A stretch of DNA of 64,000 nucleotides from NCBI RefSeq assembly GCF_009931435.1, contig NZ_CP043414.1; one strand, 5' to 3'. Origin of the DNA: Escherichia coli (GTDB lineage Bacteria; Pseudomonadota; Gammaproteobacteria; Enterobacterales; Enterobacteriaceae). The translations under genes and the position numbers were made by a program. Below, in pieces: positions 1 through 61,169 of this stretch. The notes under the pieces were generated by a model. It did no database searches, was not told the origin of the DNA, and saw only the letters and a list, made by a program, of their open reading frames with translations. Within the stretch, counting starts at the first letter, position 1. Each line of letters begins with the position of its first letter.

Positions 1-2604
1 GTTTTTTTTCTACATCGTCACGCACTAGAATTGCTCATTAATCGAAAACTGGATGATTGCGAATGCATAGTTCATTCAGTGGCTAGTTTATTGCCAAAGA
101 AAGAAAAATATACAGATGATGATCCGTTTTCCGGACTTATCGGATACGACCGTAGTCTCCGTGATGCGGTAGAAAAAGGCCGCGCAGCGGTGCTCTATCC
201 CCACGGACTGCATGTGCTGTTAACCGGGGCATCTGGTGTTGGCAAAACATTCTTTGCTGAGTTAATGCATTGCTTCGCTTGTAAGCACACCATAGGTTCG
301 CCACCTCCGTTGGTTTACTTTAACTGTGCCGAATATGCTCATAATCCGGAGTTGCTTTCCTCTCATCTGTTTGGTCACCATAAGGGGGCATTTACCGGGG
401 CAAGCGAGAATAAAACGGGGCTGGTGGAGCAAGCTGACGGAGGTTATTTACTTCTGGATGAAGTGCATCGCCTCCCGTATGAAGGACAAGAGAAGCTCTT
501 TTCTATTCTCGATAAAGGTGAATACCGCCCGCTTGGTTCAAGTGGGCCAACATATTCAATTTCGGTGCGCCTTATTTGCGCCACCACAGAGTTGGTCAAC
601 TCCTCACTATTGCGTACCTTCCAGCGGCGTATCCAGGTGTATATCGACTTACCGGGTATTCGCCAGCGTTCGGTCGAGGAGCAACTCGAATTGATTGTCA
701 GCTTCTTCCAGCGCGAAAGTCGTAAAATTGAACGTACCATAAGCCTTGATAAAACCCTTTTGCACTGGTTGTTAAGTAAACCCCTGGAAGGCAATATCGG
801 CCAGCTTAAAAGCGATATTCAGTTCTTGTGCGCGCAGGCGTGGGCGTCGGGAATGACCGAGCGCAATGATACACTAGAGTTAGATAAACGACTGGCGGAG
901 ATGCCGTTTAATACCACGCCGGAGCAGCGCCTGCTGGTCGATGCGTTGTTTGGCGGTAAAGATCGTTTGAACGTGGATGCGCGTACGTTGCCCGCGTTAA
1001 AAAATTCGTTGGCGACCAGCGCGGAAATAGAAGAGAGCGATCTGTTTTACAGTTTCCTGACTCGTGAATATGTCAATCTGCGCAACAGTAACGTGCCGCC
1101 CGCAGAAACGCTGGCTATCCTGAAAAACAAACTCAGTTCGATTTTTGAATACGGTCTCTATAGCCGCCATAGTACGGCGCATCCACCGCGCTATGGCGAT
1201 CAAATTGAGGAGCGGGTGACGTTGCTGATCGGTTACGTGGAGCAGGTATTAGGATTTACGTTGCCAGAAAACCTGGCGAACCCGTTACGTAAACACTTTC
1301 TTGCGCTGATTGGCTATGTGCGGCGAGGGCTTATACCTCAACTCTATTCCTCCAGCTTGATTCTGGATCGCTGTAAAGATGAGTATGACAATGCCACGCT
1401 TCTGTGCCGCAAAATCAATGAGCTGCTGCATATTCAGTGCCCGGCGATGGAGGTGGTCTGGCTGTGCCTGTTCCTGAAAGAGTGTCGCCACTACCGCCAG
1501 CGCATCGACACCAGCCCGGATTGCGGCGTGATTCTAATCGCTCACGGTGCGACCACCGCAACGAGCCAGGCGCAATATGTGAATCGGGTGCTGGAGCGCG
1601 ATCTGTTCTACGCAATTGATATGCCATTTGAGCAGTCGGTGCATGACACCCTGGAAACCCTGACCCGGATGATTCAGGACCGGTGCTGGCAGCGGCTGAT
1701 ACTGATGGTGGATATCGGATCGCTGGTTCATTTTGGCAGCACCATCAGCAAGCTGTTCCAGATTGACGTTCTGTTGTTGCCAAATATCACTCTGACCAGC
1801 CTGCTGGAGGTGGGGCTGGATTTAAGCTACGAAACTGGGGATCTATCGCAATTGGCTGTGCTTATGCAGAGTAAAAATATCCCTTGTCGGCTCTGCACGC
1901 CGCAGCAAGAGAGCGGTGGCAAAGTGCTGGTTATCTCATGTATAACCGGAATGGGGACGGCAGAAAAGATCAAAAAAGTGCTGGAGGAGAGCTTTGGCGA
2001 GCTGATGTCGCAGGACACGCGTATGGTGATTCTCGACTATAACGAGGTGCGCAGCCTGGAGCGTATTCAGCAGGCGCTTAATGCCAGTGAACGGCTGGCA
2101 GGGATCGTCGGCACCTTCCAGCCGGGACTGCCGGATATTCCGTTTATCTCGCTGGAGGAACTGTTTTCCGAGCAAGGGCCGGAGCTGGTGCTTAGCCTGC
2201 TGACTCCGGATCTCTCAAGCAGCGAGCGCCGACTGGAGATGGAGCGCAGCGCCATGCGCTTTATCAGCGCGCTGACCATGGAGAGCATCATCAACCATAT
2301 TTCGGTGCTCAACCCGCAGCGAATTCTGAAAGAGATCGAGGACGTTCTGAACCACTTAACCAACACGCTCTCCCTGAAACCGAGCCGCCAGGTGACACTA
2401 CGTTTTCTGATCCATTGCTGCTGCATGGTCGAGCGTATCGTGATTAACCGCAAACCGTTACAGATGGCGCTGGAAAACCGGCTTGATCTGGACGCTCGTG
2501 CCTTTAGCGTCATCAAATCCTCCTTTTTGCCGATTGAAGAGGCTTACGCTATCCGTTTATCGGACGCAGAATATTTTTATATCTACGAACTGCTCTACAG
2601 CTGA
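1..2604 (+). CDS. dgaR: sigma54-dependent LevR-family transcriptional activator (DgaR-like); 5' end outside window
   Basis: Frame is open from nt 1 (ORF track begins at TTG 31). Walker A GASGVGKT and the GAFTGA sigma54-contact motif are present in the N-terminal AAA+ domain; long C-terminal regulatory region; sits directly upstream of a sigma54 promoter and mannose-family PTS genes. Confidence 0.75.
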   Translation, partial: VFFLHRHALELLINRKLDDCECIVHSVASLLPKKEKYTDDDPFSGLIGYDRSLRDAVEKGRAAVLYPHGLHVLLTGASGVGKTFFAELMHCFACKHTIGSPPPLVYFNCAEYAHNPELLSSHLFGHHKGAFTGASENKTGLVEQADGGYLLLDEVHRLPYEGQEKLFSILDKGEYRPLGSSGPTYSISVRLICATTELVNSSLLRTFQRRIQVYIDLPGIRQRSVEEQLELIVSFFQRESRKIERTISLDKTLLHWLLSKPLEGNIGQLKSDIQFLCAQAWASGMTERNDTLELDKRLAEMPFNTTPEQRLLVDALFGGKDRLNVDARTLPALKNSLATSAEIEESDLFYSFLTREYVNLRNSNVPPAETLAILKNKLSSIFEYGLYSRHSTAHPPRYGDQIEERVTLLIGYVEQVLGFTLPENLANPLRKHFLALIGYVRRGLIPQLYSSSLILDRCKDEYDNATLLCRKINELLHIQCPAMEVVWLCLFLKECRHYRQRIDTSPDCGVILIAHGATTATSQAQYVNRVLERDLFYAIDMPFEQSVHDTLETLTRMIQDRCWQRLILMVDIGSLVHFGSTISKLFQIDVLLLPNITLTSLLEVGLDLSYETGDLSQLAVLMQSKNIPCRLCTPQQESGGKVLVISCITGMGTAEKIKKVLEESFGELMSQDTRMVILDYNEVRSLERIQQALNASERLAGIVGTFQPGLPDIPFISLEELFSEQGPELVLSLLTPDLSSSERRLEMERSAMRFISALTMESIINHISVLNPQRILKEIEDVLNHLTNTLSLKPSRQVTLRFLIHCCCMVERIVINRKPLQMALENRLDLDARAFSVIKSSFLPIEEAYAIRLSDAEYFYIYELLYS

Positions 2605-2668
2605 TCCCCTGATTTACGGGGCTTAAGGCCTCATCCAATCTCTTTTCCTCTGAGCGTGACACAAATTC

Positions 2669-2684
2669 TGGCACGTCCTTTGCT
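2669..2684 (+). promoter_or_regulatory. sigma54 (-24/-12) promoter TGGCAC-N5-TTGCT for the PTS operon
   Basis: ctGGcacgtcctttGCt with exactly 10 nt between GG and GC, about 40 nt upstream of the EIIA start. Confidence 0.75.
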
Positions 2685-2722
2685 CCTGACGAAATGTAAA
2701 CACTGGAGCAAAGGAGGCTATT

Positions 2723-3151
2723 TTGACCACAACTGTATCTATTCATCCGTTACCTGAAATTTTGCTGCTAACTCACGGCGGCTGGGGGCTGCAGCTCTGC
2801 AACAGTCTGCGCATGGTGATGGGCGAAATCGAAGGCGTGACGGAAATCGCGCTGATGCCTGTCGATACGCTGGGCGAGTTTTACCAGCGCGTCGAAGCCG
2901 TGGTGAAAACCATGCCAGAAGGTTCGCTTATCGTGACCGATTTTATCGGCGGCACCACCTCTAACGTGGCGGCGCGGCTGAGCGCCGATTATCCGGTGGC
3001 GGTGATCTCCGGGCTTAATGCCTCGCTGCTGCTGGAGGCGCTGGACAAGCGCGAACATGGCCCACTGACCGCCTGCGTGGCCGATCTGGTGGAAGCTGGG
3101 CGCAACAGTTGCCTGGACGTCGTCTCCCATATTCGTCAATTACAACAGTAA
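2723..3151 (+). CDS. dgaA: PTS mannose-family EIIA component
   Basis: 142 aa; LLLTHGG N-terminal His motif typical of EIIA-Man; TTG start 5 nt after AAGGAGG; the first ATG would delete the His motif. Confidence 0.8.
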   Translation: MTTTVSIHPLPEILLLTHGGWGLQLCNSLRMVMGEIEGVTEIALMPVDTLGEFYQRVEAVVKTMPEGSLIVTDFIGGTTSNVAARLSADYPVAVISGLNASLLLEALDKREHGPLTACVADLVEAGRNSCLDVVSHIRQLQQ

Positions 3152-3161
3152 GGAAAATCGT

Positions 3162-3647
3162 ATGGCAAACATCGTGTTATGTCGCATTGACAGCCGTCTT
3201 ATCCACGGACAGGTGGTGACGAAGTGGGTGGGGCAATCCCAGGCCAACCGTATTGCGGTGGTCAGCGACGAGCTGGATGCCGATCCGTTTATGAAAAATA
3301 TCTACCTGATGGCCGCGCCGCCGAATATCAAAGTGGACTGCTTCAGCAACCAGAGCTTCGCGGCCGCGTGGAAAGACAACCAGCTGGGCGACGGCAACGT
3401 GCTGGTGCTGTTCCCGTCGCTGGCGGCGATTCAGGAAGCGGTGCAGCAGGGCTTTGACGTGGCTGATATTCAGGTTGGCGGCTTAGGCGGCGGGCCAAAC
3501 CGTAAAGCGGTGTTCCAGAACATAACTCTGGATGAAAAAGACGTTGGCATTCTTAACGATTTGAAAAGTCGCGGCATTAAGGCTGTTTTCCAGACCATCC
3601 CGGAAGATAAGCCGCAGTCGCTGGACGATATCCTGAAAAAATTCTGA
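3162..3647 (+). CDS. dgaB: PTS mannose/sorbose-family EIIB component
   Basis: 161 aa; N-terminal CRIDSRLIHGQV phospho-His motif of EIIB-Man. Confidence 0.85.
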   Translation: MANIVLCRIDSRLIHGQVVTKWVGQSQANRIAVVSDELDADPFMKNIYLMAAPPNIKVDCFSNQSFAAAWKDNQLGDGNVLVLFPSLAAIQEAVQQGFDVADIQVGGLGGGPNRKAVFQNITLDEKDVGILNDLKSRGIKAVFQTIPEDKPQSLDDILKKF

Positions 3648-3672
3648 CCCTCTGAACATGGGATAACAAATT

Positions 3673-4422
3673 ATGGATACCTTACTTTTTGCAAGCCTGA
3701 TGGGGCTGTATTACTGGTTTGCCCGGTTGCGCCTTGGCTATACCTTCTCCGCCATGCTGTTACAGCCAGTGGTGGTGGCGGTCTTTGTCGGCCTGCTGCT
3801 CGGCAACATGCCTGCGGCGATGATTATCGGCGCGGGGATGCAGTTGGTATATCTGGGTGTGACCTCAACGCCAGGCGGCAATGTGCCGTCAGACCCGGCG
3901 CTGGCGGCCTGTATCGCCATTCCTATCGCCGTTAAGGCCAATATGGACCCGAACCTGGCGATTGCACTGGCGATTCCATTTGGCGTTATCGGCGTATTCC
4001 TCGACCAGTTGCGTCGCACGCTAAATGCGGCCTGGGTGCATATGGCCGATAAACACGCGGAAACGGCCAATATGTCAGCCATTATGCGCTGCGCCTTTCT
4101 CTACCCGGCGCTGCTGGGGCTGGTGCTACGTTTCCCAGTGGTGTTCGCCGCCAACTACTTCGGCCAGAACGTAGTGGAAAGTTTCCTCAAGCTGATGCCG
4201 CACTGGCTGACCCACTCGTTTGAAATCATGGGCGGGATTCTCCCGGCGCTGGGCTTCGCCATCACCATTATGGTGATTGGTAAAAAGAGCCTACTGCCGT
4301 GGTTTATCGGCGGATTCTTCGCGGTGCTGTACCTCAAGGTGGACATCATGGCGATGGCGATTTTCGGCACCTGCGTGGCCTTCCTGATTAAAGGCCTGGC
4401 GAAAAATGAAGGAGCGGCATAA
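3673..4422 (+). CDS. dgaC: PTS mannose-family EIIC membrane component
   Basis: 249 aa hydrophobic protein in EIIC position of the operon. Confidence 0.8.
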   Translation: MDTLLFASLMGLYYWFARLRLGYTFSAMLLQPVVVAVFVGLLLGNMPAAMIIGAGMQLVYLGVTSTPGGNVPSDPALAACIAIPIAVKANMDPNLAIALAIPFGVIGVFLDQLRRTLNAAWVHMADKHAETANMSAIMRCAFLYPALLGLVLRFPVVFAANYFGQNVVESFLKLMPHWLTHSFEIMGGILPALGFAITIMVIGKKSLLPWFIGGFFAVLYLKVDIMAMAIFGTCVAFLIKGLAKNEGAA

Positions 4423-5279
4423 TGAGCGGCGGCGTAATGCAGCATGAACTGGTGGAGCGCGCGCGGGAGTCCGGGGCGCTGACCAAAGCGGATATCACCA
4501 AAGCGTGGTTTATCTACTGGCTTGGCGCGGAAGTTTCCAGCTCCTATGAGCGTTTACAGAGCCTGATTTTCTGCGCCTCGATGACGCCGATTATTAAAAA
4601 GCTCTATCCGCAAAAGGAGGAGCAGGTGGAGGCGTTAAAACGCCATCTGAACTTCTTCAACTCAGAGCAGACGTTTGGCGCGGTGATCCAGGGGATCTCC
4701 ATCGCCATGGAAGAGCAAAAGACCCGCGGCGAGGCGATTAACGATGCCTCTATCACCGGGATTAAAACCGGCCTGATGGGGCCGCTGGCCGGAATGGGCG
4801 ACTCCATCATCTGGGCGGCCGTGATGCCGCTGTTGATTGCTATTTTTATCCCGTTCGCCGCCAATGGCAGCGCAATGGGCGGTATTTTGCCGCTGATTCT
4901 CTACCCGGCGATTACGCTGGCAATCAGCTACGGCATGGTGCACAAGGGCTATACGCTAGGGCGCGATTCGATTATCAGCCTGCTGCAGGGGGGGCGCATC
5001 AAGGAGCTTATCTACGGCGCTAACGTACTGGGGCTTATCATGATGGGTGCGCTATCCGCGAGCTTTGTCAAGATAACCTCACCTTTAAAAATTAGCGCAC
5101 TGAAAGGCTCTGAAGTGGTGGTACAGCAGATTCTTGACTCCATCGCGCCCGGCCTACTGCCGCTGGCGGCAGTGTTCGCGATCTACTTCTATCAGGTGAA
5201 AAAGGGACCGCGTTACACCACGATTTTGCTGTCAATTGTGGCGTTGAGCGTGGTCTGCTCGCTGCTGGGAGTGCTGTAA
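4422..5279 (+). CDS. dgaD: PTS mannose-family EIID membrane component
   Basis: 285 aa; ATG overlaps the dgaC stop (ATAATG); EIID-like membrane protein. Confidence 0.8.
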   Translation: MSGGVMQHELVERARESGALTKADITKAWFIYWLGAEVSSSYERLQSLIFCASMTPIIKKLYPQKEEQVEALKRHLNFFNSEQTFGAVIQGISIAMEEQKTRGEAINDASITGIKTGLMGPLAGMGDSIIWAAVMPLLIAIFIPFAANGSAMGGILPLILYPAITLAISYGMVHKGYTLGRDSIISLLQGGRIKELIYGANVLGLIMMGALSASFVKITSPLKISALKGSEVVVQQILDSIAPGLLPLAAVFAIYFYQVKKGPRYTTILLSIVALSVVCSLLGVL

Positions 5280-5282
5280 GCC

Positions 5283-6392
5283 ATGACGCAGAATATCTAT
5301 CAACAACTGGGGCTGAAACAAGTGATTAACGCTTGCGGTAAGATGACGATTCTCGGCGTCTCCAGTGTCGCGCCGGAGGTGATGCAGGCCACCGCGCGTG
5401 CGGCATCCTCTTTCGTGGAGATTGATCAGCTGGTGGACAAAACCGGCGAGCTGGTCTCTCGCTTTACCGGGGCGGAGGATAGCTACGTTACCTCCTGCGC
5501 CTCGGCAGGGATCGCCATCGCTATCGCCGCCGCCATTACCCGCGGCGACAAGGCCCGGGTGGCGCTCATGCCGGATAGCTCCGGCATGGCCAATGAAGTG
5601 GTGATGCTGCGCGGCCATAACGTCGATTACGGCGCATCGATCCTCAGCGCGATCCGCTTAGGCGGCGGGCGCGTGGTGGAGGTGGGGTCAAGTAACCTGG
5701 CGGCTCTCTGGCAGCTGGAGAGTGCCATTACCGACGCGACCGCCGCGCTGCTGTATGTGAAGTCGCATCACTGCGTGCAGAAGGGGATGTTGAACATCGA
5801 GGACTTCGCCCAAGTCGCGCAGATGCACAACCTGCCGTTGATTGTCGATGCCGCCGCCGAAGAGGATTTACGTGCCTGGGTGGTGAGCGGAGCGGATATG
5901 GTGGTCTACAGCGGCGCAAAAGCCTTTAACGCGCCTACCTCCGGGTTTATCACTGGTAAAAAAATCTGGATTGCAGCCTGTAAAGCGCAGCATTACGGCA
6001 TTGCCAGGGCGATGAAAATCGGCAAGGAGAACATGGTTGGGCTGGTTTACGCGCTGGAGAATTATCACCAGGGGCAGGCAATCATCACCGCGGAACAGCT
6101 CCAGCCAGTGGTTGAAGCGATTTCTGCGATTCACGGGTTAACGGCTGATATTGAGCAGGATGAAGCCGGGCGTGCAATCTGGCGTATTCGTATTCGGGTA
6201 AATGCGCAAGAATTTGGAGTTGCCGCTCGCGTCGTCGAAGCGCAACTGCGTGGTGGCGATATCGCGATTTATACACGGCGGTATAACCTCCACCAGGGCG
6301 TTTTTAGCCTTGATCCGCGTACGGTGGCGGATGGGGAGATGGCGCTTATCGTGGCGCGACTGAAGGAGATTGCAGATCATGCAAAAGATTAA
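5283..6392 (+). CDS. dgaE: SelA-like PLP-dependent enzyme (D-glucosaminate-6-phosphate ammonia-lyase-like)
   Basis: 369 aa; SGAKAF-type PLP-lysine region; position after EIID matches the Salmonella dga operon order. Confidence 0.7.
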   Translation: MTQNIYQQLGLKQVINACGKMTILGVSSVAPEVMQATARAASSFVEIDQLVDKTGELVSRFTGAEDSYVTSCASAGIAIAIAAAITRGDKARVALMPDSSGMANEVVMLRGHNVDYGASILSAIRLGGGRVVEVGSSNLAALWQLESAITDATAALLYVKSHHCVQKGMLNIEDFAQVAQMHNLPLIVDAAAEEDLRAWVVSGADMVVYSGAKAFNAPTSGFITGKKIWIAACKAQHYGIARAMKIGKENMVGLVYALENYHQGQAIITAEQLQPVVEAISAIHGLTADIEQDEAGRAIWRIRIRVNAQEFGVAARVVEAQLRGGDIAIYTRRYNLHQGVFSLDPRTVADGEMALIVARLKEIADHAKD

Positions 6393-7122
6393 TTTCTATC
6401 ATAATCGTGTGGCAATTAATGTGCTGGCGAAAGATATCGCCAATGCCCGTGAAATCTATGACGCCGCCGAAGGCCACGCGGTGATTGGCGTGCTTTCCGC
6501 GCAGTTCTCCTCGGTGGATGAGGGGATCCAGGAAGTTAAACGTTGGATGGCGGAAATACCGTCCATTTCAGTAGGTCTGGGGGCGGGTGACCCGGCGCAG
6601 TATTACAAAGCTGCGATGATTGCGGCGCAGATTCATCCAGCACACGTTAACCAGACCTTTACCGGTTGTGGTTTCGCGGCAGGCGCGCTTGCGACGACGG
6701 GCGGTGAGCAGACCCATGTCAACGCGCTGGTTAGCCCGACGGGAACGCCGGGCGAAGTGCTGATTTCCACTGGCGTTAGCAGCAGCCAGGGTACGCCTGC
6801 CCGCGTATCCTGCGATACGGCAGTGCGAATGATGCTAGATATGGGCGCACACGCGGCGAAGTTCTTTCCGATGGGCGGCGAGAAGTCGCTTCCGGAGCTA
6901 TACGCGCTGGCGACCACGGCGGCGCGCAATGGTATGACGCTGATTGAGCCAACCGGCGGGATTGATTTGGATAACTTCAGTGTGATTCTAAAAACTTGTC
7001 TGGAGGCGGGTGTGCCGCGCATTATGCCGCATGTTTACAGCTCGATTATAGACCCTGATACGGGATATACCCGACCGGATGATGTAGCCGTTTTGCTGAA
7101 TAAAGTGAAATCACTACTCTGA
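6379..7122 (+). CDS. dgaF: KDPG-aldolase-family protein
   Basis: AKFFPMGG and EPTGGI motifs resemble Eda FKFFPA and CPTGGI; ATG 6379 preceded by GAAGGAG (ORF track starts at TTG 6370). Confidence 0.7.
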   Translation: MQKINFYHNRVAINVLAKDIANAREIYDAAEGHAVIGVLSAQFSSVDEGIQEVKRWMAEIPSISVGLGAGDPAQYYKAAMIAAQIHPAHVNQTFTGCGFAAGALATTGGEQTHVNALVSPTGTPGEVLISTGVSSSQGTPARVSCDTAVRMMLDMGAHAAKFFPMGGEKSLPELYALATTAARNGMTLIEPTGGIDLDNFSVILKTCLEAGVPRIMPHVYSSIIDPDTGYTRPDDVAVLLNKVKSLL

Positions 7123-10227: not shown

Positions 10228-10423
<196 letters not shown>

Positions 10424-16352: not shown

Positions 16353-17062
16353 AAATCGAACTGACGGTGAATGGATTGAAGGTACAGGCGCAGTACCCGA
16401 ACGAAGAGATTGAAAATGTGCATAAACCGTTGCTGCGTATGCTGGCAGCCTTACAGACGGTAAATCCGCAGCGGCGTACCGTGGTTTTTCTTTGCGCTCC
16501 GCCGGGGACGGGTAAATCTACCCTAACCACTTTCTGGGAATATCTCGCGCAACAAGACCCGGAACTACCCGCTATTCAGACGCTGCCGATGGATGGTTTT
16601 CACCATTACAATAGCTGGCTGGATGCGCATCAATTGCGCCCCTTTAAAGGCGCACCAGAGACATTCGATGTGGCAAAACTGGCGGAAAATCTGCGCCAGG
16701 TAATGGAAGGGGATTGTACGTGGCCGCAGTACGATCGACAAAAGCATGATCCTGTTGAAGATGCGTTGCACGTTACCGCACCACTCGTCATCGTCGAAGG
16801 AAACTGGTTGTTGCTGGATGACGAGAAGTGGCGCCAGCTTGCGCAATTTTGTGATTTCTCGATCTTTATCAACGCGCCAGCTACTGCGTTGCGGGAACGA
16901 CTGGTGGGGCGCAAGCTGGCGGGAGGGTTATCGCTGGCAGACGCAGAAGCCTTTTATGACCGTACCGATGGGCCGAATGTTCGCCGGGTGCTGGAAGAGA
17001 GTCTGCCTGCAAATTTGACCTTAATGATGACCGCTACGGGTGAATATCGTCTGGTGGATTAA
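16349..17062 (+). CDS. yggC: P-loop nucleoside/sugar kinase-family protein
   Basis: 237 aa; GTG start; Walker A PPGTGKST. Confidence 0.85.
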   Translation: MKIELTVNGLKVQAQYPNEEIENVHKPLLRMLAALQTVNPQRRTVVFLCAPPGTGKSTLTTFWEYLAQQDPELPAIQTLPMDGFHHYNSWLDAHQLRPFKGAPETFDVAKLAENLRQVMEGDCTWPQYDRQKHDPVEDALHVTAPLVIVEGNWLLLDDEKWRQLAQFCDFSIFINAPATALRERLVGRKLAGGLSLADAEAFYDRTDGPNVRRVLEESLPANLTLMMTATGEYRLVD

Positions 17063-17711
17063 CGTTCCTGATTACACCATCTTCCAGTCGCACCACACGA
17101 GAGAAATGACGCCGGGTAAATGCGGCGTCATGACTGATTGCTACGACGCTCGTGCCTCGCTGGCGGCACTTTTCCAGCCAGCTTTCAAACACGCTCATCC
17201 AATTTTCGTCAAAATCCCGACTCGGCTCGTCCAGCAGCAATAGCGGCGGAGAGAGTGCTTCCAGGCAGGCGACGGCGACCATCCGTCGCTGCGCACTATG
17301 CAGATCTAACGGATGCGCGCTGGCAGTGTCTGCTAACTGACAGCATTGCAGGGCAGCATTGGTACGTTGAGTGATTTCATCCGCCAGGCATTTTTGCAGT
17401 TTCAAACCAAATGCGATCTCGTCAGCGACGGTGCTGTGAAAAAGCTGGTTTTCCGCTTCCTGAAACAGTACGCCAATCTTTGCTGCACGTTGGCGGTTTT
17501 TCAGGTTTTTCATCGCCTGTTGTTGCAGCATAACCGTACCGGCTGTGGGCGTAAGAAGACCTGCCATTACTCGTAACAGCGTCGATTTTCCCGCGCCATT
17601 GTCGCCGGTCAGCGCCAACCATTCACCTTGTTTGAGTTGCAGAGAAATGTCGCAAAGACAATCCGTTGCCGCGCCAGGCCAGCGATAAGACATCTGATTT
17701 AACGTTAACAT
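17034..17711 (-). CDS. ABC/ECF transporter ATPase subunit with degenerate signature motif
   Basis: Walker A GDNGAGKST; signature position reads LHSAQ instead of LSGGQ; Walker B LLLLDEPS; ATG 17711 (ORF track starts at GTG 17744); 3' end overlaps yggC by 29 bp. Confidence 0.8.
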   Translation of the reverse strand: MLTLNQMSYRWPGAATDCLCDISLQLKQGEWLALTGDNGAGKSTLLRVMAGLLTPTAGTVMLQQQAMKNLKNRQRAAKIGVLFQEAENQLFHSTVADEIAFGLKLQKCLADEITQRTNAALQCCQLADTASAHPLDLHSAQRRMVAVACLEALSPPLLLLDEPSRDFDENWMSVFESWLEKCRQRGTSVVAISHDAAFTRRHFSRVVRLEDGVIRNVNPPDDIHP

Positions 17712-18382
17712 AGTGGCTGGAGCGCTCCGTTTTGCAATTGCCACGCTTGCTGGCAGTAGTTCAGGAAAGGTGTGCGATGACGTTCAAAAAGAATAATCAG
17801 CGAACCACGTTCAAACGCCCAGTGTTGTAAGCGCTGCAACAGCATTTCGCTGGCCTGCGGCGTCAGGCGACTAAAGGCTTCATCAAGAATTAATAGTTTT
17901 GGCTGCATCGCGATGGCGCAGGCGATGACCACGCGCTGTGTCTCTCCACCGGAGAGTGTTGCCGGGTGACGATGGCGCAACGGCTGGCACTCGGTCAGAG
18001 TCAGGGCAGCATCAATCCGCGCCATAATCTCCTCTTCAGCAAGACACAGATTTTCTGGCCCAAAGGCAACTTCTTCTTCCACGCTAAAGGTACAGCCGGA
18101 GAGCTGCAAATAGGGCGATTGCTGAACGAGCTGGATGGTGGCGGATTGTTCATTAAGCGGGAGATACCCAATGGGCGTACCGAGAAGCGTCCCCGTGCCG
18201 GTTATCTCTCCTGGCAGAAAGTCCGGATACCAGCCCGCCATCAGTTGCGCCAGCGTACTTTTGCCACTGCCGTTGTCACCAAAGATGGCGACTATCCCCG
18301 GTTTGACATAGTGAAAGTCATAACAGAACGGAGGGTGCGTTGAGTGTGTCGGGCAATAGCGAAACTGTTCTAACGTAACCAT
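17705..18382 (-). CDS. ABC/ECF transporter ATPase subunit (near-canonical)
   Basis: Walker A GDNGSGKST, signature LSGGETQR, Walker B LLILDEAF; start either ATG 18382 or GTG 18388, both overlapping the upstream T gene. Confidence 0.8.
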   Translation of the reverse strand: MVTLEQFRYCPTHSTHPPFCYDFHYVKPGIVAIFGDNGSGKSTLAQLMAGWYPDFLPGEITGTGTLLGTPIGYLPLNEQSATIQLVQQSPYLQLSGCTFSVEEEVAFGPENLCLAEEEIMARIDAALTLTECQPLRHRHPATLSGGETQRVVIACAIAMQPKLLILDEAFSRLTPQASEMLLQRLQHWAFERGSLIILFERHRTPFLNYCQQAWQLQNGALQPLC

Positions 18383-19077
18383 ATCCACGCTCCGAATTCT
18401 GCCAGCATCAGCAAGATCATGGCGTAACGTGCCACTTTTTCCAGGTTACTGTCAGGCGGTGCCCATAACGTAGTGCGCCGGTTGTGGATCCGAAATGCCC
18501 GCATATCCAGCGCCGCACCACGGATAGCCAGATCGTTTAGCGCATTGTGTGTTAGCGGAATAATTAGCGCGGGTATAGCACGTAAACGCTGATACCAGCC
18601 CTCATCCAGCGGCACCCCACGGGCGCGCTGCGCTTCATGAATAATCGCTAATTGCCGTTTTAACTGCTCAACGACCAACAAAGGCCCAGCGAACAGATAA
18701 GCGACGCCCGGCGGCAGGCGAGAAGCAAACAAAGCGCGGATAAAACGTTGCACTGGGACGAATTGCATCCACAACTGCGAGGTTGAAACAATCGCCAGAA
18801 TCCGCAACCAGAGCGTAATAGCATGCGTCCACCGTTCTGGCGAGCGTGGCGTGCCGCTTAGCCATTCTGTCAGCCAGCCACCGTGTACCAGCCACAGTCC
18901 AGCCCCCAGCGAGAACATCAGCCAGACAACATATTTTACCCGCCGCCGCGTGGCCTTTAGCGCAATAAGGCAGAAAAAGGTCGCCGCGCTATAGAATGGC
19001 AGTATTGTCTGTGTGGGCAGGATAAGCGTGGTGCAGGCCGCCAGCGCCCACAGCGTTAGGGATGTAAACGGATGCAT
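18370..19077 (-). CDS. ECF transporter transmembrane (T/CbiQ-family) component
   Basis: 235 aa polytopic membrane protein with Ala-Arg-Gly-type coupling motifs (QRARGVP, AIRGAALD); ATG directly follows the upstream TAA. Confidence 0.75.
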   Translation of the reverse strand: MHPFTSLTLWALAACTTLILPTQTILPFYSAATFFCLIALKATRRRVKYVVWLMFSLGAGLWLVHGGWLTEWLSGTPRSPERWTHAITLWLRILAIVSTSQLWMQFVPVQRFIRALFASRLPPGVAYLFAGPLLVVEQLKRQLAIIHEAQRARGVPLDEGWYQRLRAIPALIIPLTHNALNDLAIRGAALDMRAFRIHNRRTTLWAPPDSNLEKVARYAMILLMLAEFGAWIWLR

Positions 19078-19656
19078 TTAGCGCACGGCAGCCATTGCCG
19101 GAAAATGGCGCGTGGTGCGAATCGGCAGCTGACGCAGTAAAAGCCAGACAATCACCGCTGTAAGAATTTTATCGACCAGGTTTGCGCCTATCACCGTAAT
19201 CGCCACCGACTCCACCAGGTTTTGCCCCATAGAGTGCATCCAGGCAACGAACAAATCGGCTCCGCTACCGGTGACACCGCCGAACAGCGCAGTACGCAGC
19301 GGTACAGCGACGACCGTTACTGCAAGCGTAATAATCACGCCGCTGACAACGACTTTTGGCAGGGTGCGAAACCAACCCGCTCGCGCCAGCCAACCGGCGA
19401 CCAGGCCAATAACCATCGCCACGGGGGCAAAGGCGGCGGCGATCGGGTCGGTGAGCAATCCCCAGAGTAAATTGGTCAGTAAGCCGGTCAGCATCCCGAT
19501 CACCGGACCAAGCAGTACCGCGCTAATAAGTGTGCCGATGGAGTCGAGAAATATAGGTAATTTGACCATGCTGGCCAGTTGCCCGCCAATCATATTGATG
19601 GCGATAGAGATAACAATCAACACCAGTGCTTGACTGGAAAAGTGGCGACGCGCCAT
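19078..19656 (-). CDS. ECF transporter substrate-capture (S) component, substrate unknown
   Basis: 192 aa from MARRHFSS (ATG 19656, GAGAGG upstream); about 6 predicted TM segments; AVLLGPVIG motif as in S components; the ORF-track N-terminal extension would overlap the upstream gene. Confidence 0.7.
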   Translation of the reverse strand: MARRHFSSQALVLIVISIAINMIGGQLASMVKLPIFLDSIGTLISAVLLGPVIGMLTGLLTNLLWGLLTDPIAAAFAPVAMVIGLVAGWLARAGWFRTLPKVVVSGVIITLAVTVVAVPLRTALFGGVTGSGADLFVAWMHSMGQNLVESVAITVIGANLVDKILTAVIVWLLLRQLPIRTTRHFPAMAAVR

Positions 19657-19678
19657 AAGAAAACCTCTCTGAAAGTAG

Positions 19679-20110
19679 TTATTTAACGGGGGAAATATGC
19701 AATTCGTCGTAACCAGAAAGCGCGCAAGGTTGGCGGCTAAACGCCAGCTCCTCAAGGCAGCCGATCACCAGTTCAAGCGTGGTCCGCACGGTACAGCCGG
19801 GCATCATATGACCGCCAAGCATCGTGCCGTGTGGATCGGAAACGCAGAGATGAAGATGTTCACCACTCTGTTCCAGTGTGCCGTTCAATGCGATGACTTC
19901 GAACTTACCGCTTAGTAGGGCCGTGTTTTCTTGCCCGGCATAGCGTAAGGCGACGTCAGTCAGACTGCCGGTACAACCTGCAATCCACGCGGCGTGGAGT
20001 TGTTGTTGCTGCGCGAAGGCGCGTAATTGGGAGAGAACTTCCTGCCCTGGGAGCAGGCGCAGCGCGTAAAAGCGTGCGGAGGAAGAATATGGGTAGGGCA
20101 ATGTCATCAT
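19679..20110 (-). CDS. PPC/DUF296-domain protein (predicted DNA-binding)
   Basis: 143 aa; first gene of the operon, GGAG upstream of ATGATG; my recollection is that this resembles bacterial PCC-domain proteins. Confidence 0.6.
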   Translation of the reverse strand: MMTLPYPYSSSARFYALRLLPGQEVLSQLRAFAQQQQLHAAWIAGCTGSLTDVALRYAGQENTALLSGKFEVIALNGTLEQSGEHLHLCVSDPHGTMLGGHMMPGCTVRTTLELVIGCLEELAFSRQPCALSGYDELHISPVK

Positions 20111-20238
20111 TGGAGTACTCCGAAACTCGGACGTATTGCGGATAATATCGACGCTGCATCAGTCATATTCTGATATAAGTCAGGGTTTGTGACGGCACAA
20201 CGAAAAGATTTTGCTACGCTTATTCGTGATTCTGCAAA

Positions 20239-20254
20239 GTGGAATAAATTCCAC
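20239..20254. promoter_or_regulatory. candidate operator: perfect palindrome GTGGAAT-AA-ATTCCAC
   Basis: 7-bp perfect inverted arms in the divergent region; an extra ATTCCAC half-site at 20323-20329; second palindrome TTGTG-N4-CACAA at 20187-20200. Confidence 0.4.
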
Positions 20255-20481
20255 AGGGGCGGGGATGAAAACGTGACGTAAGTCAGATAATTGTCTTCTT
20301 TGACTGGACAATCATTCCTTTTATTCCACGTTTCGCTTATCCTAGCTGAAGCGTTTCAGTCGATTAAATGTTCGACAATTAACCAATCAGTCGCAGTTTG
20401 CGACAGGTAAGGTTTCCCCGGACGATTTGCTGGATTACTCTGTCTGGCAAATTTGCTCAGGGAAAACCTTGCAGGAGATCT

Positions 20482-24034: not shown

Positions 24035-24223
24035 CCCGCTCTGCGGGTCTTTTTTTCGCCAAAAGCAAAATTGCCTGATGCGCTACGCTTATCAGGCCTA
24101 CATGTATCCTGCAATATACTGAATTTACAGGCTTTTGTAGGCTGGATAAGGCGTTCACGCCGCATCCGGCATGACAAAGTGCACATTGATATCTGTCTGA
24201 GCCCCGCTCTGCGGATCTTTTTT
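24035..24223. repeat. BIME (two inverted REPs) between two copies of the fbaA terminator hairpin
   Basis: cccgctctgcgg hairpin plus T-run at 24035-24056 and again at 24203-24223; REP palindromes at about 24073-24103 and 24137-24173. Confidence 0.8.
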
Positions 24224-48114: not shown

Positions 48115-48316
48115 AAAGGCGCTTCGGCGCCTTTGACACTGATGTCAAACTCAACATTGCCTGATGCACCTCGTTTATCAGGCCTACATAGTCTGTGCAA
48201 TGTATTGAATTTGCACGATCTTGTAGGCTGGATAAGGCGTTCACGCCGCATCCGGCATAATAAAAGCACTTTGTCATCAATAATTTGAAAGGCGCTTCGG
48301 CGCCTTTATTTTTTTA
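48115..48316. repeat. BIME (two inverted REPs) between two copies of the gcvP terminator hairpin
   Basis: aaaggcgcttcggcgccttt at 48115-48134 and 48288-48307 (second followed by atttttttt); REPs at about 48159-48187 and 48223-48258. Confidence 0.8.
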
Positions 48317-51750: not shown

Positions 51751-51908
51751 TGTAGGCCTGATAAGACGCGTCAGCGTCGCATCAGGCATCGGATCGCAAC
51801 TGCCGGATGCGGCGTGAACGCCTTATCCGGCCTACGGGCCGCGTCCTTGGTGTGATAAAGGCACCAAATCCCAGGCATGATAAGACGCGTCAGCGTCGCA
51901 TCAGGCAA
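51751..51908. repeat. BIME: three REP elements between convergent yqfA and ygfZ
   Basis: gcctgataagacgcgtcagcgtcgcatcaggc occurs twice (direct) flanking an inverted gccggatgcggcgtgaacgccttatccggcctac. Confidence 0.8.
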
Positions 51909-56128: not shown

Positions 56129-57862
56129 GTGAAACAACAGATACAACTTCGTCGCCGTGAAGTCGATGAAACGGCAGACTTGCCCGCTGAATTGCCTCCC
56201 TTGCTGCGCCGTTTATATGCCAGCCGGGGAGTACGCAGTGCGCAAGAACTGGAACGCAGTGTTAAAGGTATGCTGCCCTGGCAGCAACTGAGCGGCGTCG
56301 AAAAGGCCGTTGAGATCCTTTACAACGCTTTTCGCGAAGGAACGCGGATTATGGTGGTCGGTGACTTCGACGCCGACGGTGCCACCAGCACGGCTCTAAG
56401 CGTGCTGGCGATGCGCTCGCTTGGTTGCAGCAATATCGACTACCTGGTACCAAACCGTTTCGAAGACGGTTACGGCTTAAGCCCGGAAGTGGTCGATCAG
56501 GCCCATGCCCGTGGCGCGCAGTTAATTGTCACGGTGGATAACGGCATTTCCTCCCATACGGGGGTTGAACATGCTCGATCGTTGGGCATTCCGGTTATTG
56601 TTACCGATCACCATTTGCCGGGCGAAACATTACCCGCGGCGAAAGCGATCATTAACCCTAACTTGCGCGACTGCAATTTCCCGTCGAAATCACTGGCAGG
56701 CGTGGGGGTGGCGTTTTATCTGATGCTGGCGCTGCGCACCTTTTTGCGCGATCAGGGCTGGTTTGATGAGCGCGGCATCGCAATTCCTAACCTGGCAGAA
56801 CTGCTGGATCTGGTCGCGTTGGGGACAGTGGCGGACGTCGTGCCGCTGGATGCTAATAATCGCATTCTGACCTGGCAGGGGATGAGTCGCATCCGTGCCG
56901 GAAAGTGCCGTCCAGGGATTAAAGCGTTGCTGGAAGTGGCCAACCGCGATGCGCAAAAACTCGCCGCCAGCGATTTAGGTTTTGCGCTGGGGCCACGTCT
57001 CAATGCAGCCGGGAGACTGGATGATATGTCCGTTGGTGTGGCGCTGTTGCTGTGCGACAATATCGGCGAAGCGCGAGTACTGGCAAATGAACTCGATGCG
57101 CTAAACCAGACGCGAAAAGAGATCGAACAGGGAATGCAGGTTGAAGCCCTGACCCTGTGCGAGAAACTGGAGCGCAGCCGCGACACGCTACCCGGCGGGC
57201 TGGCAATGTATCACCCGGAATGGCATCAGGGCGTTGTCGGTATTCTGGCTTCGCGTATTAAAGAGCGTTTTCACCGTCCGGTTATCGCTTTTGCGCCTGC
57301 GGGTGACGGTACGCTGAAAGGTTCCGGTCGCTCCATTCAGGGGCTGCATATGCGTGATGCGCTGGAGCGGCTAGACACACTCTACCCCGGCATGATGCTG
57401 AAGTTTGGCGGTCATGCGATGGCGGCAGGCCTGTCGCTGGAAGAGGATAAATTCGAACTCTTTCAGCAACGGTTTGGCGAACTGGTTACTGAGTGGCTGG
57501 ACCCTTCGCTATTGCAAGGCGAAGTGGTGTCAGACGGTCCGCTAAGCCCAGCCGAAATGACCATGGAAGTGGCGCAGCTGCTGCGCGATGCTGGCCCGTG
57601 GGGGCAGATGTTCCCGGAGCCGCTGTTTGACGGTCATTTCCGTCTGCTGCAACAGCGGCTGGTGGGCGAGCGTCATTTGAAAGTCATGGTCGAACCGGTC
57701 GGCGGCGGTCCGCTGCTGGACGGTATTGCTTTTAATGTCGATACCGCCCTCTGGCCGGATAACGGCGTGCGCGAAGTGCAACTGGCTTACAAGCTGGATA
57801 TCAACGAGTTTCGCGGCAACCGCAGCCTGCAAATTATCATCGACAATATCTGGCCAATTTAG
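56129..57862 (+). CDS. recJ: ssDNA-specific 5'-3' exonuclease RecJ
   Basis: 577 aa; GTG start; DHH motif (VTDHH). Confidence 0.97.
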   Translation: MKQQIQLRRREVDETADLPAELPPLLRRLYASRGVRSAQELERSVKGMLPWQQLSGVEKAVEILYNAFREGTRIMVVGDFDADGATSTALSVLAMRSLGCSNIDYLVPNRFEDGYGLSPEVVDQAHARGAQLIVTVDNGISSHTGVEHARSLGIPVIVTDHHLPGETLPAAKAIINPNLRDCNFPSKSLAGVGVAFYLMLALRTFLRDQGWFDERGIAIPNLAELLDLVALGTVADVVPLDANNRILTWQGMSRIRAGKCRPGIKALLEVANRDAQKLAASDLGFALGPRLNAAGRLDDMSVGVALLLCDNIGEARVLANELDALNQTRKEIEQGMQVEALTLCEKLERSRDTLPGGLAMYHPEWHQGVVGILASRIKERFHRPVIAFAPAGDGTLKGSGRSIQGLHMRDALERLDTLYPGMMLKFGGHAMAAGLSLEEDKFELFQQRFGELVTEWLDPSLLQGEVVSDGPLSPAEMTMEVAQLLRDAGPWGQMFPEPLFDGHFRLLQQRLVGERHLKVMVEPVGGGPLLDGIAFNVDTALWPDNGVREVQLAYKLDINEFRGNRSLQIIIDNIWPI

Positions 57863-57952
57863 CGTCATATTATCTATAAAAAAGAGCGTGGATTGGGTAC
57901 AATCCCGCTCTTATCACCGCATTTTGACTAGCTCAATAAAAGAAATCAGACC

Positions 57953-59051
57953 ATGTTTGAAATTAATCCGGTAAATAATCGCATTCAGGACCTCACGGAA
58001 CGCTCCGACGTTCTTAGGGGGTATCTTTGACTATGACGCCAAGAAAGAGCGTCTGGAAGAAGTAAACGCCGAGCTGGAACAGCCGGATGTCTGGAACGAA
58101 CCCGAACGCGCACAGGCGCTGGGTAAAGAGCGTTCCTCCCTCGAAGCCGTTGTCGACACCCTCGACCAAATGAAACAGGGGCTGGAAGATGTTTCTGGTC
58201 TGCTGGAGCTGGCTGTAGAAGCTGACGACGAAGAAACCTTTAACGAAGCCGTTGCTGAACTCGACGCCCTGGAAGAAAAACTGGCGCAGCTTGAGTTCCG
58301 TCGTATGTTCTCTGGCGAATATGATAGCGCCGACTGCTACCTCGATATTCAGGCAGGTTCTGGCGGTACGGAAGCACAGGACTGGGCGAGCATGCTTGAG
58401 CGTATGTATCTGCGCTGGGCTGAATCGCGTGGTTTCAAAACTGAAATTATCGAAGAGTCGGAAGGTGAAGTGGCGGGTATTAAATCCGTGACTATCAAAA
58501 TCTCCGGCGATTACGCTTACGGCTGGCTGCGTACAGAAACTGGCGTTCACCGCCTGGTGCGTAAGAGCCCGTTTGACTCCGGCGGTCGTCGCCACACGTC
58601 GTTCAGCTCCGCGTTTGTTTACCCGGAAGTCGATGATGATATCGATATCGAAATCAATCCGGCGGATCTGCGCATCGACGTTTATCGCGCATCCGGCGCG
58701 GGTGGTCAGCACGTTAACCGTACCGAATCTGCGGTGCGTATTACTCACATCCCAACCGGGATCGTGACCCAGTGCCAGAACGACCGTTCCCAGCACAAGA
58801 ATAAAGACCAGGCCATGAAGCAGATGAAAGCGAAGCTTTATGAACTGGAGATGCAGAAGAAAAATGCCGAGAAACAGGCGATGGAAGATAACAAATCCGA
58901 CATCGGCTGGGGCAGCCAGATTCGTTCTTATGTCCTTGATGACTCCCGCATTAAAGATCTGCGCACCGGGGTAGAAACCCGCAACACGCAGGCCGTGCTG
59001 GACGGCAGCCTGGATCAATTTATCGAAGCAAGTTTGAAAGCAGGGTTATGA
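57953..59051 (+). CDS. prfB: peptide chain release factor 2 (requires +1 frameshift at 58025-58029)
   Basis: Frame 0 runs 57953-58027 (25 codons) into in-frame TGA; the +1 frame continues 58029-59051; together 365 aa; GGQ motif ([11 protein letters not shown]). Confidence 0.95.
58016..58031 (+). other. prfB programmed +1 frameshift site with internal Shine-Dalgarno
   Basis: AGGGGG TAT CTT TGA C: SD-like AGGGGG 3 nt upstream of the CUU-UGA slippery site. Confidence 0.9.
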
Positions 59052-59060
59052 GGAACCAAC

Positions 59061-60578
59061 ATGTCTGAACAACACGCACAGGGCGCTGACGCGGTAGTCG
59101 ATCTTAACAATGAACTGAAAACGCGTCGTGAGAAGCTGGCGAACCTGCGCGAGCAGGGGATTGCCTTCCCGAACGATTTCCGTCGCGATCATACCTCTGA
59201 CCAATTGCACGCAGAATTCGACGGTAAAGAGAACGAAGAACTGGAAGCGCTGAACATCGAAGTTGCCGTTGCTGGCCGCATGATGACCCGTCGTATTATG
59301 GGTAAAGCCTCCTTCGTTACTCTGCAGGACGTTGGCGGCCGCATTCAGCTGTACGTTGCCCGTGACGATTTACCGGAAGGCGTTTACAACGATCAATTCA
59401 AAAAATGGGATCTCGGCGATATCCTCGGCGCGAAAGGTAAACTGTTCAAAACCAAAACGGGTGAACTGTCTATCCACTGTACCGAGCTGCGTCTGCTGAC
59501 CAAAGCACTGCGTCCGCTGCCGGACAAATTCCACGGTTTGCAGGATCAGGAAGCGCGCTATCGTCAGCGTTATCTGGATCTCATTTCTAACGATGAATCC
59601 CGCAACACCTTTAAAGTGCGTTCGCAGATCCTCTCTGGCATTCGCCAGTTCATGGTGAATCGTGGCTTTATGGAAGTTGAAACGCCGATGATGCAGGTGA
59701 TCCCAGGCGGCGCGGCGGCGCGTCCGTTTATCACCCATCACAATGCGCTGGATCTCGACATGTACCTGCGTATCGCGCCGGAACTGTACCTCAAGCGTCT
59801 GGTGGTTGGTGGCTTCGAGCGTGTATTCGAAATCAACCGTAACTTCCGTAACGAAGGTATTTCCGTACGTCATAACCCAGAGTTCACCATGATGGAACTC
59901 TATATGGCTTACGCGGATTACAAAGATCTGATCGAGCTGACCGAATCGCTGTTCCGTACTCTGGCACAGGATATTCTCGGTAAGACGGAAGTGACCTACG
60001 GCGACGTGACGCTGGACTTCGGTAAACCGTTCGAAAAACTGACCATGCGTGAAGCGATCAAGAAATATCGCCCGGAAACCGACATGGCGGATCTGGACAA
60101 CTTCGACTCTGCGAAAGCGATTGCTGAATCTATCGGCATCCACGTTGAGAAGAGCTGGGGTCTGGGCCGTATCGTTACCGAGATCTTCGAAGAAGTGGCA
60201 GAAGCACATCTGATTCAGCCGACCTTCATTACTGAATATCCGGCAGAAGTTTCTCCGCTGGCGCGTCGTAATGACGTTAACCCGGAAATCACTGACCGCT
60301 TTGAGTTCTTCATTGGTGGTCGTGAAATCGGTAACGGTTTTAGCGAGCTGAATGACGCGGAAGATCAGGCGCAGCGCTTCCTGGATCAGGTTGCCGCGAA
60401 AGACGCAGGCGACGACGAAGCGATGTTCTACGACGAAGATTATGTCACCGCACTGGAACACGGCTTACCGCCGACAGCAGGTCTGGGAATTGGTATCGAC
60501 CGTATGGTAATGCTGTTCACCAACAGCCATACCATCCGCGACGTTATTCTGTTCCCGGCGATGCGTCCGGTGAAATAA
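59061..60578 (+). CDS. lysS: lysyl-tRNA synthetase (constitutive)
   Basis: 505 aa. Confidence 0.97.
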
Positions 60579-60596
60579 GCATTACGTTATGCTCAC

Positions 60597-60624
60597 AACC
60601 CCGGCAAATGTCGGGGTTTTTTAT
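60597..60624 (+). terminator. rho-independent terminator of lysS (overlaps idi stop)
   Basis: aaccccgg-caaatgt-cggggtt followed by ttttt. Confidence 0.8.
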
Positions 60625-61169
60625 TTAAGCTGGGTAAATGCAGATAATCGTTTTCTGGCTTCGCGATTTGTCGCCTGCATCACCATCCACGGACTGAACG
60701 CCCACGGCGTGGCATCAATACCGCGTAAAACCGCTGCTAAATCACACCATTGATAATCCATCACTTCATCATCGTTGATCTGTAACGCACTGGTCGTGCG
60801 TGCGGCAAATACCGGACATACTTCATTTTCTACAATGCCATTCGGATCGGTGGCGCGGTAGCGAAAGTCAGGATAGACCGGTTCTGGTGCTGTTATTTCC
60901 ACACCCAGTTCAAAGCGGCAACGGCGGATCACCGCGTATTCGTTGCTTTCGCCCAGTTGTGGGTGCCCACAAACCGAGTTAGTCCACACGCCCGGCCATG
61001 CTTTTTTGCTAAGGGCGCGGCGGGTAACTAATAATTGCCCTTTGGCATTAAACAGCCAGCAGGAGAACGCGAGATGTAAGAGAGTGTCTGCCGTGTGTGC
61101 GGCATACTTTTCCAGCGTACCCGTGGGAACTCCCTGTGCATTCAATAAAATGACGTGTTCCGTTTGCAT
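60621..61169 (-). CDS. idi: isopentenyl-diphosphate delta-isomerase
   Basis: 182 aa; Nudix-like fold. Confidence 0.95.

Follow-up and report, generated by a model that had tools for sequence, protein, structure and literature searches.

An intact programmed +1 frameshift cassette in the release factor 2 gene prfB of an Escherichia coli not derived from K-12

In the 64-kb window, by which we mean the whole stretch of Escherichia coli DNA that was analyzed, the prfB locus is almost certainly a functional gene whose product, release factor 2 (RF2), is made only by means of a +1 shift at codon 25/26. An earlier sequence-only reading had called the programmed frameshift of prfB intact on the basis of a CUU UGA C slippery site with an upstream AGGGGG, and each of these elements was found exactly where it had placed them. 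It had also presented the site as known biology of low interest, an appraisal that we share: RefSeq already annotates the identical protein as a two-piece coding sequence, and the prfB frameshift site is textbook biology, with nothing new in it, that is annotated in thousands of genomes.

The complete RF2 gene spans 57953..59051 on the plus strand and is distributed over two frames that together encode 365 aa, as supported by translation, by alignment to K-12, by TIGR00020, by Pfam, and by PDB 1GQE. When the plus strand is read and translated, frame 0 opens at ATG 57953 and proceeds for 25 codons (57953..58027, a segment present in the list of open reading frames [ORFs] and the same as in K-12) before reaching TGA at 58028-58030. 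Between a TAA at 57972-57974 and the TGA at 59049-59051, the +1 frame contains no stop and is thus open from 57975; read from 58029 (GAC), it supplies 340 codons, which bring the joined product to 365 aa. This second segment (58029..59051), which holds codons 26–365 and the TGA stop, is delimited by translation and by the codon phase of the substitutions relative to K-12. The signals lie at the junction. An internal Shine–Dalgarno (SD)-like AGGGGG (58016..58021), recovered by sequence reading and by motif scan, stands 3 nt 5′ of the slippery codon, from which it is separated by the spacer TAT (58022..58024), itself the codon of Tyr24, with the same spacing as in the published motif (PMC12421855). 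The slippery run CTTT (58025..58028) combines the Leu25 codon CTT with the first base of the stop (PMC12421855); the RF2-specific in-frame stop TGA (58028..58030), seen in the sequence and in the ORF list, occupies codon 26 of frame 0, and the C that follows it at 58031 creates the weak termination context UGA-C (PMC12421855). An early in-frame TGA, a CTTT, an AGGGGG exactly 3 nt before CTT, and a 3′ C are hence all present, and the +1 frame encodes the remainder of RF2 in continuity with the frame-0 N-terminus. With up to one mismatch allowed and both strands searched, the 64-kb window has a single occurrence of AGGGGGNNNCTTTGAC, when shuffled sequences lead one to expect 0.03.

The identity of the joined product leaves little ambiguity. 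The 365-aa protein is identical in sequence to WP_001701073.1 (RefSeq, e.g., strains 2013C-4282 and N96). Against TIGR00020, the NCBIfam model of prfB, it obtains 525.9 bits for a cutoff of 370 over residues 12–362, when with the RF1 models it reaches about 305 bits, under their own cutoffs; its whole-protein score, over the RF2 cutoff and ahead of RF1 and PrfH, identifies it as RF2 among class I release factors. Pfam recognizes PCRF (207.5 bits) and RF-1 (146 bits) in the joined product, and the solved E. coli RF2 (PDB 1GQE and others) aligns with it from 1–365 to 1–365, unbroken over the junction. The translation further reveals the RF2 motifs SPF at residues 205–207 (58566-58574) and GGQ at residues 250–252 (58701-58709).

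An alignment with K-12 prfB had been put forward by the sequence-only reading as the way to check the site, and it bears the claim out: 1099 nt face 1099 nt with 0 indels, and the whole cassette is identical. The two genes differ by 23 substitutions (97.9% identity), none of them in the first 81 nt, cassette included; when the sequence is read in its two frames, 22 of these are synonymous changes of a third codon position. In K-12 MG1655, whose prfB (b2891, NP_417367.1) is the original programmed +1 frameshift, the site likewise reads AGGGGG-TAT-CTT-TGA-C, and the neighbors are alike, with recJ upstream, lysS 9 nt downstream, and then idi; the intergenic leader differs by 2 bases. The sole change in the protein lies at residue 246, which is Ala here (GCA, 58689-58691) and Thr in K-12 (ACA). 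Thr246 is confined to K-12, where it makes RF2 less active, and other E. coli and other bacteria carry Ala or Ser at this position (PMC5373646). Since Thr is specific to K-12, the Ala246 of the present protein implies that the window is not derived from K-12 and that the RF2 it encodes is the common, fully active variant found outside K-12, not the weakened Thr246 form.

One of the synonymous differences is located close to the cassette: the Tyr27 codon is TAT here and TAC in K-12, and the TAT produces a second frame-0 TGA at 58034-58036, two codons past the regulatory TGA, which is common to the closest E. coli genome. Tyr27 lies just 3′ of the shift site, second among the codons decoded after the shift. 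One could imagine that this change slightly alters how efficiently ribosomes shift or what becomes of those that read through, and hence the RF2 set-point of this lineage with respect to K-12, but this seems very unlikely to us, and nothing in the data suggests such an effect.

Beyond K-12, of 5,426 complete E. coli genomes, 5,425 match the region as recJ–prfB–lysS. Of these 5,425, 5,406 reproduce the 59 nt over the cassette (57975-58033) with 100% identity, and the other 19 differ at one position. Among complete E. coli genomes, identity reaches at most 99.3% over the prfB region and at most 98.5% over 24 kb (40001-64000); the window looks to come from a lineage that has no near neighbor among these genomes, or from a near relative such as Shigella. 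The genomes that carry WP_001701073.1 encode the same protein, and the prfB of the closest one is 7 synonymous nucleotides apart. Separately, we observed a cassette with one G fewer (AGGGG, hereafter G4) in three of the 5,426 complete genomes (NZ_CP031355.1, NZ_CP029973.1, and NZ_CP024650.2), which correspond to unrelated assemblies, namely O145 RM8995-C1 (NZ_CP031355.1, prfB at 1279-2376 of the retrieved record), 51008369SK1, and BH100 MG2014. In the G4 alleles, prfB forms one continuous frame of 365 codons (..RGIFDYD..), and in the one record inspected, that of O145 RM8995-C1, RefSeq gives it as an ordinary coding sequence. Either these assemblies contain a homopolymer error or RF2 autoregulation has truly been lost in the genomes concerned. 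They belong to the same family as the present gene and are single ORFs devoid of autoregulation, whereas the window keeps both the G5 and the TGA. The prfB of Actinomycetota, where the motif has been lost naturally, is also a single ORF without autoregulation, when both frames are present in the window (PMC12421855).

The cassette is in fact shared far beyond the species. A bacteria-wide prfB frameshift motif was described by Baranov et al. 2002 (as cited in PMC12421855); the motif is reported in 8,164 of 12,753 genomes (64%), with the consensus AGGGGG, 3 nt, CTTT, TGA, C, and a stop that is never TAG (PMC12421855). The site of the window fits this consensus exactly and has nothing distinctive. 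Our own scan for TAGGGGGNNNCTTTGAC, conducted with one genome per species, returned at least 120 loci, and the matches listed span many groups, among them bacilli, Clostridia, Gammaproteobacteria, and Gemmatimonadetes. Among the listed sites with a complete downstream frame, 76 of 97 are RF2 genes endowed with SPF and GGQ, and all 76 share the same layout, i.e., a frame-0 ORF of ∼24–25 codons that ends in ..RGYL or ..RGSL at a TGA, followed by ∼340 codons in the +1 frame. RF2 genes of Gammaproteobacteria have, as here, a frame-0 ORF of about 24–25 codons ending in ...LRGYL, when those of Bacillota have a TCT spacer (..RGSL) instead of the TAT found here. The matches of the scan that are not RF2 genes have unrelated spacers and were set aside as chance occurrences.

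These cross-species loci were picked by an exact match to the cassette, which by construction does not vary among them; the figures of PMC12421855 given above are independent of this choice. In 96 cassette-anchored loci, the most variable position upstream is position 3 of frame 0 (entropy of 1.73 vs. 1.44 and 1.06 for the other two), and the most variable position downstream is position 3 of the +1 frame (1.74 vs. 1.22 and 0.91). The variable codon phase thus switches at the cassette, which shows that translation passes into the +1 frame there.

These comparisons weigh directly on a more trivial account of the frame break, according to which it would be a 1-nt insertion, caused either by a sequencing or assembly error or by an inactivating mutation that would have turned prfB into a pseudogene. 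Such an account has some appeal: the break involves a single base in a homopolymer-rich spot (GGGGG, TTT), which is a typical place for errors, and a length difference of 1 nt, G4 for G5, does exist in 3 of 5,426 complete E. coli genomes. However, it is the window that holds the majority state, with the 59 nt over the cassette identical in 5,406 of 5,425 genomes, K-12 included; the same layout recurs in many phyla; the break is located exactly at a canonical cassette made of an SD-like element, a 3-nt spacer, and CTTTGAC; and the gene body is under purifying selection, as judged from the 22 synonymous substitutions out of 23. Moreover, no release factor other than RF2 recognizes UGA, and a null allele of prfB is therefore not to be expected. 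We consequently regard an error or a pseudogene as a highly improbable origin of the break and retain a functional prfB with a programmed frameshift.

Another account arises from the way in which ORFs are called. The sequence-only reading had warned that naive calling splits prfB, and this is what happens: on the sense strand, the mechanical ORF list contains only a 25-aa ORF (57953-58030) and a 293-aa ORF (58170-59051) at the locus. It had also named a contiguous single-frame ORF as the observation that would contradict the frameshift; we searched the ORF list and the translation for one, and none exists at the locus. The 293-aa ORF begins at 58170 because this is where the first ATG of the +1 frame is found, and the 47 genuine codons 26–72 (58029-58169) consequently belong to no listed ORF. 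Taken at face value, this output would describe two genes translated without any frameshift, a 25-aa leader peptide (57953-58030) and a shorter RF2 of 293 aa initiated at ATG 58170. The 293-aa piece by itself does pass the cutoff of TIGR00020, with 474.5 bits, albeit over profile positions 64–353 only. Yet the stretch 58029-58169 encodes residues 26–72 of RF2, which are present in the solved protein and are covered by positions 2–63 of the TIGR00020 profile; the substitutions in this stretch and beyond it keep the +1 codon phase; and ATG 58170 is nearly deprived of SD pairing (−2.8 kcal/mol). Met73, for its part, is presumably an internal residue of the helix-rich domain 1 in the RF2 structure. 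Because residues 26–72 figure in the structure and the profile, because the region evolves in the +1 phase, and because no SD precedes ATG 58170, we exclude the two-gene reading, to which we would grant next to no probability.

Finally, the mechanical list includes a 334-aa antisense ORF (58014-59018, minus strand) that exceeds both sense pieces in length and is the longest of the locus, but the notion that it would be the real gene can be dismissed: Pfam gives no match for it even at E ≤ 1, 22 of the 23 K-12 substitutions hit its codon position 1 and change 22 residues, and it is unannotated in all four genomes inspected, so that we rejected it as a shadow ORF opposite a conserved gene, in view of its lack of family match and of these first-position substitutions.

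With the programmed frameshift as the retained reading, one that nothing in the sequence contradicts, the mode of operation of the site can be outlined on the model of K-12, in which frameshifting and its decrease with rising RF2 have been shown experimentally (literature summarized in PMC12421855); the dynamics described hereafter are transposed from K-12, which has the identical site, when the anatomy is read here from the sequence. The ribosome would read 25 codons until UGA-C, a poor stop context, enters the A site. When RF2 is abundant, termination would occur at the UGA and a 25-aa peptide would be released. When RF2 is scarce, the ribosome would pause, and the AGGGGG located 3 nt 5′ of the P-site codon would pair with the anti-SD of the 16S rRNA and thereby help displace the E-site tRNA, while the P-site Leu-tRNA would slip from CUU to UUU. 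GAC would then be decoded as Asp26, and 340 further codons (this one included) would complete the 365-aa RF2. Given that the shift depends on RF2 scarcity, RF2 would set its own rate of synthesis.

Computations on the RNA are in line with this scheme. The predicted duplex between the SD-like AGGGGG and the canonical 16S 3′ tail reaches −10.7 to −12.6 kcal/mol, when the predicted anti-SD pairing is −1.3 kcal/mol at the prfB start, −2.8 upstream of ATG 58170, and −6.3 at lysS. Since the window contains no 16S gene, these calculations used the canonical E. coli anti-SD. A search for a stimulatory RNA structure over 57985-58085 indicated that this segment folds no more stably than its shuffled versions (z = −0.53), so that we put forward no stimulatory structure, and the Rfam scan of the whole window placed no RNA family over the frameshift site. 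Both outcomes are what one expects if the signal resides in the linear sequence and not in a fold. As a side observation, a second stretch of prfB that is complementary to the anti-SD was found at ∼58687-58716 (−13.6 kcal/mol) and corresponds to the GGQ-coding GGTGGTCAG. This complementarity is probably forced by the codons, and it comes with neither a slippery nor a stop context.

Regarding the genomic context, lysS, which encodes the lysine-tRNA ligase, starts 9 nt past the prfB stop (59061..60578, plus strand), according to the ORF list and to the RefSeq annotation of colinear genomes, and the prfB–lysS order is the same in K-12 and in every genome inspected. On the basis of this arrangement, prfB and lysS likely form one operon with lysS in the downstream position. 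After lysS, a terminator-like hairpin followed by a T-run (60597..60618, plus strand; nine pairs, six of them G-C, with the tail TTTTATTT), which is a consensus match only, likely marks the end of the transcription unit. A simple scan of 57600-60800 yielded no consensus match to a sigma-70 promoter for prfB. In the recJ–prfB spacer, we also observed an imperfect inverted repeat (AGAGCG-T-GGATTG / CAATCC-CGCTCT, 57883-57911) that is conserved in K-12 and may be a terminator or an attenuator of recJ.

At a larger scale, the gene order of the window is standard for Escherichia (pepP ... xerD-dsbC-recJ-prfB-lysS-idi-uacT), and a few features apart from prfB can be reported from comparisons with E. 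coli N96 and from Rfam. A D-glucosaminate utilization cluster (31-7122, plus strand), absent at that position in E. coli N96, comprises genes for the sigma-54 activator DagR (cut by the window start), the mannose-family PTS components IIA/IIB/IIC/IID, the ammonia lyase DgaE, and the aldolase DagF; we tentatively take it for ordinary accessory cargo. A segment of ∼3.3 kb between yggC and epd (16994-20261) is also missing from E. coli N96. Two ECF/cobalt-type ABC ATPase genes are among the minus-strand ORFs of this segment, as is a 234-aa ORF for which no NCBIfam match was found. Conversely, at the point corresponding to ∼10350, E. coli N96 has beside tkt an IS621 element (IS110-like) that is absent from the window, and an ES036/REP-type Rfam match (10312-10354) coincides with this junction point. 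Other REP-derived Rfam matches are naRNA4 at 51755-51832 and ES036 at 24094-24136 and 48180-48222. Rfam additionally identified, both on the minus strand, the 6S RNA (ssrS, 38097-38280, 139.8 bits) and a Sib antitoxin RNA (37298-37448, 133.6 bits), and an Ibs toxin gene is annotated in E. coli N96 at the matching position.

As for the frameshift site itself, its value is one of annotation quality only. An ORF-based caller delivers a truncated RF2 of 293 aa that has lost its 72 N-terminal residues, and may even favor the 334-aa antisense shadow ORF. RefSeq, for its part, presents prfB as a two-piece join in K-12 (b2891) and in the non-K-12 genomes inspected, and the non-K-12 prfB records inspected carry the note “programmed frameshift.” The correct record for the present gene is accordingly join(57953..58027,58029..59051), accompanied by a ribosomal-slippage note.
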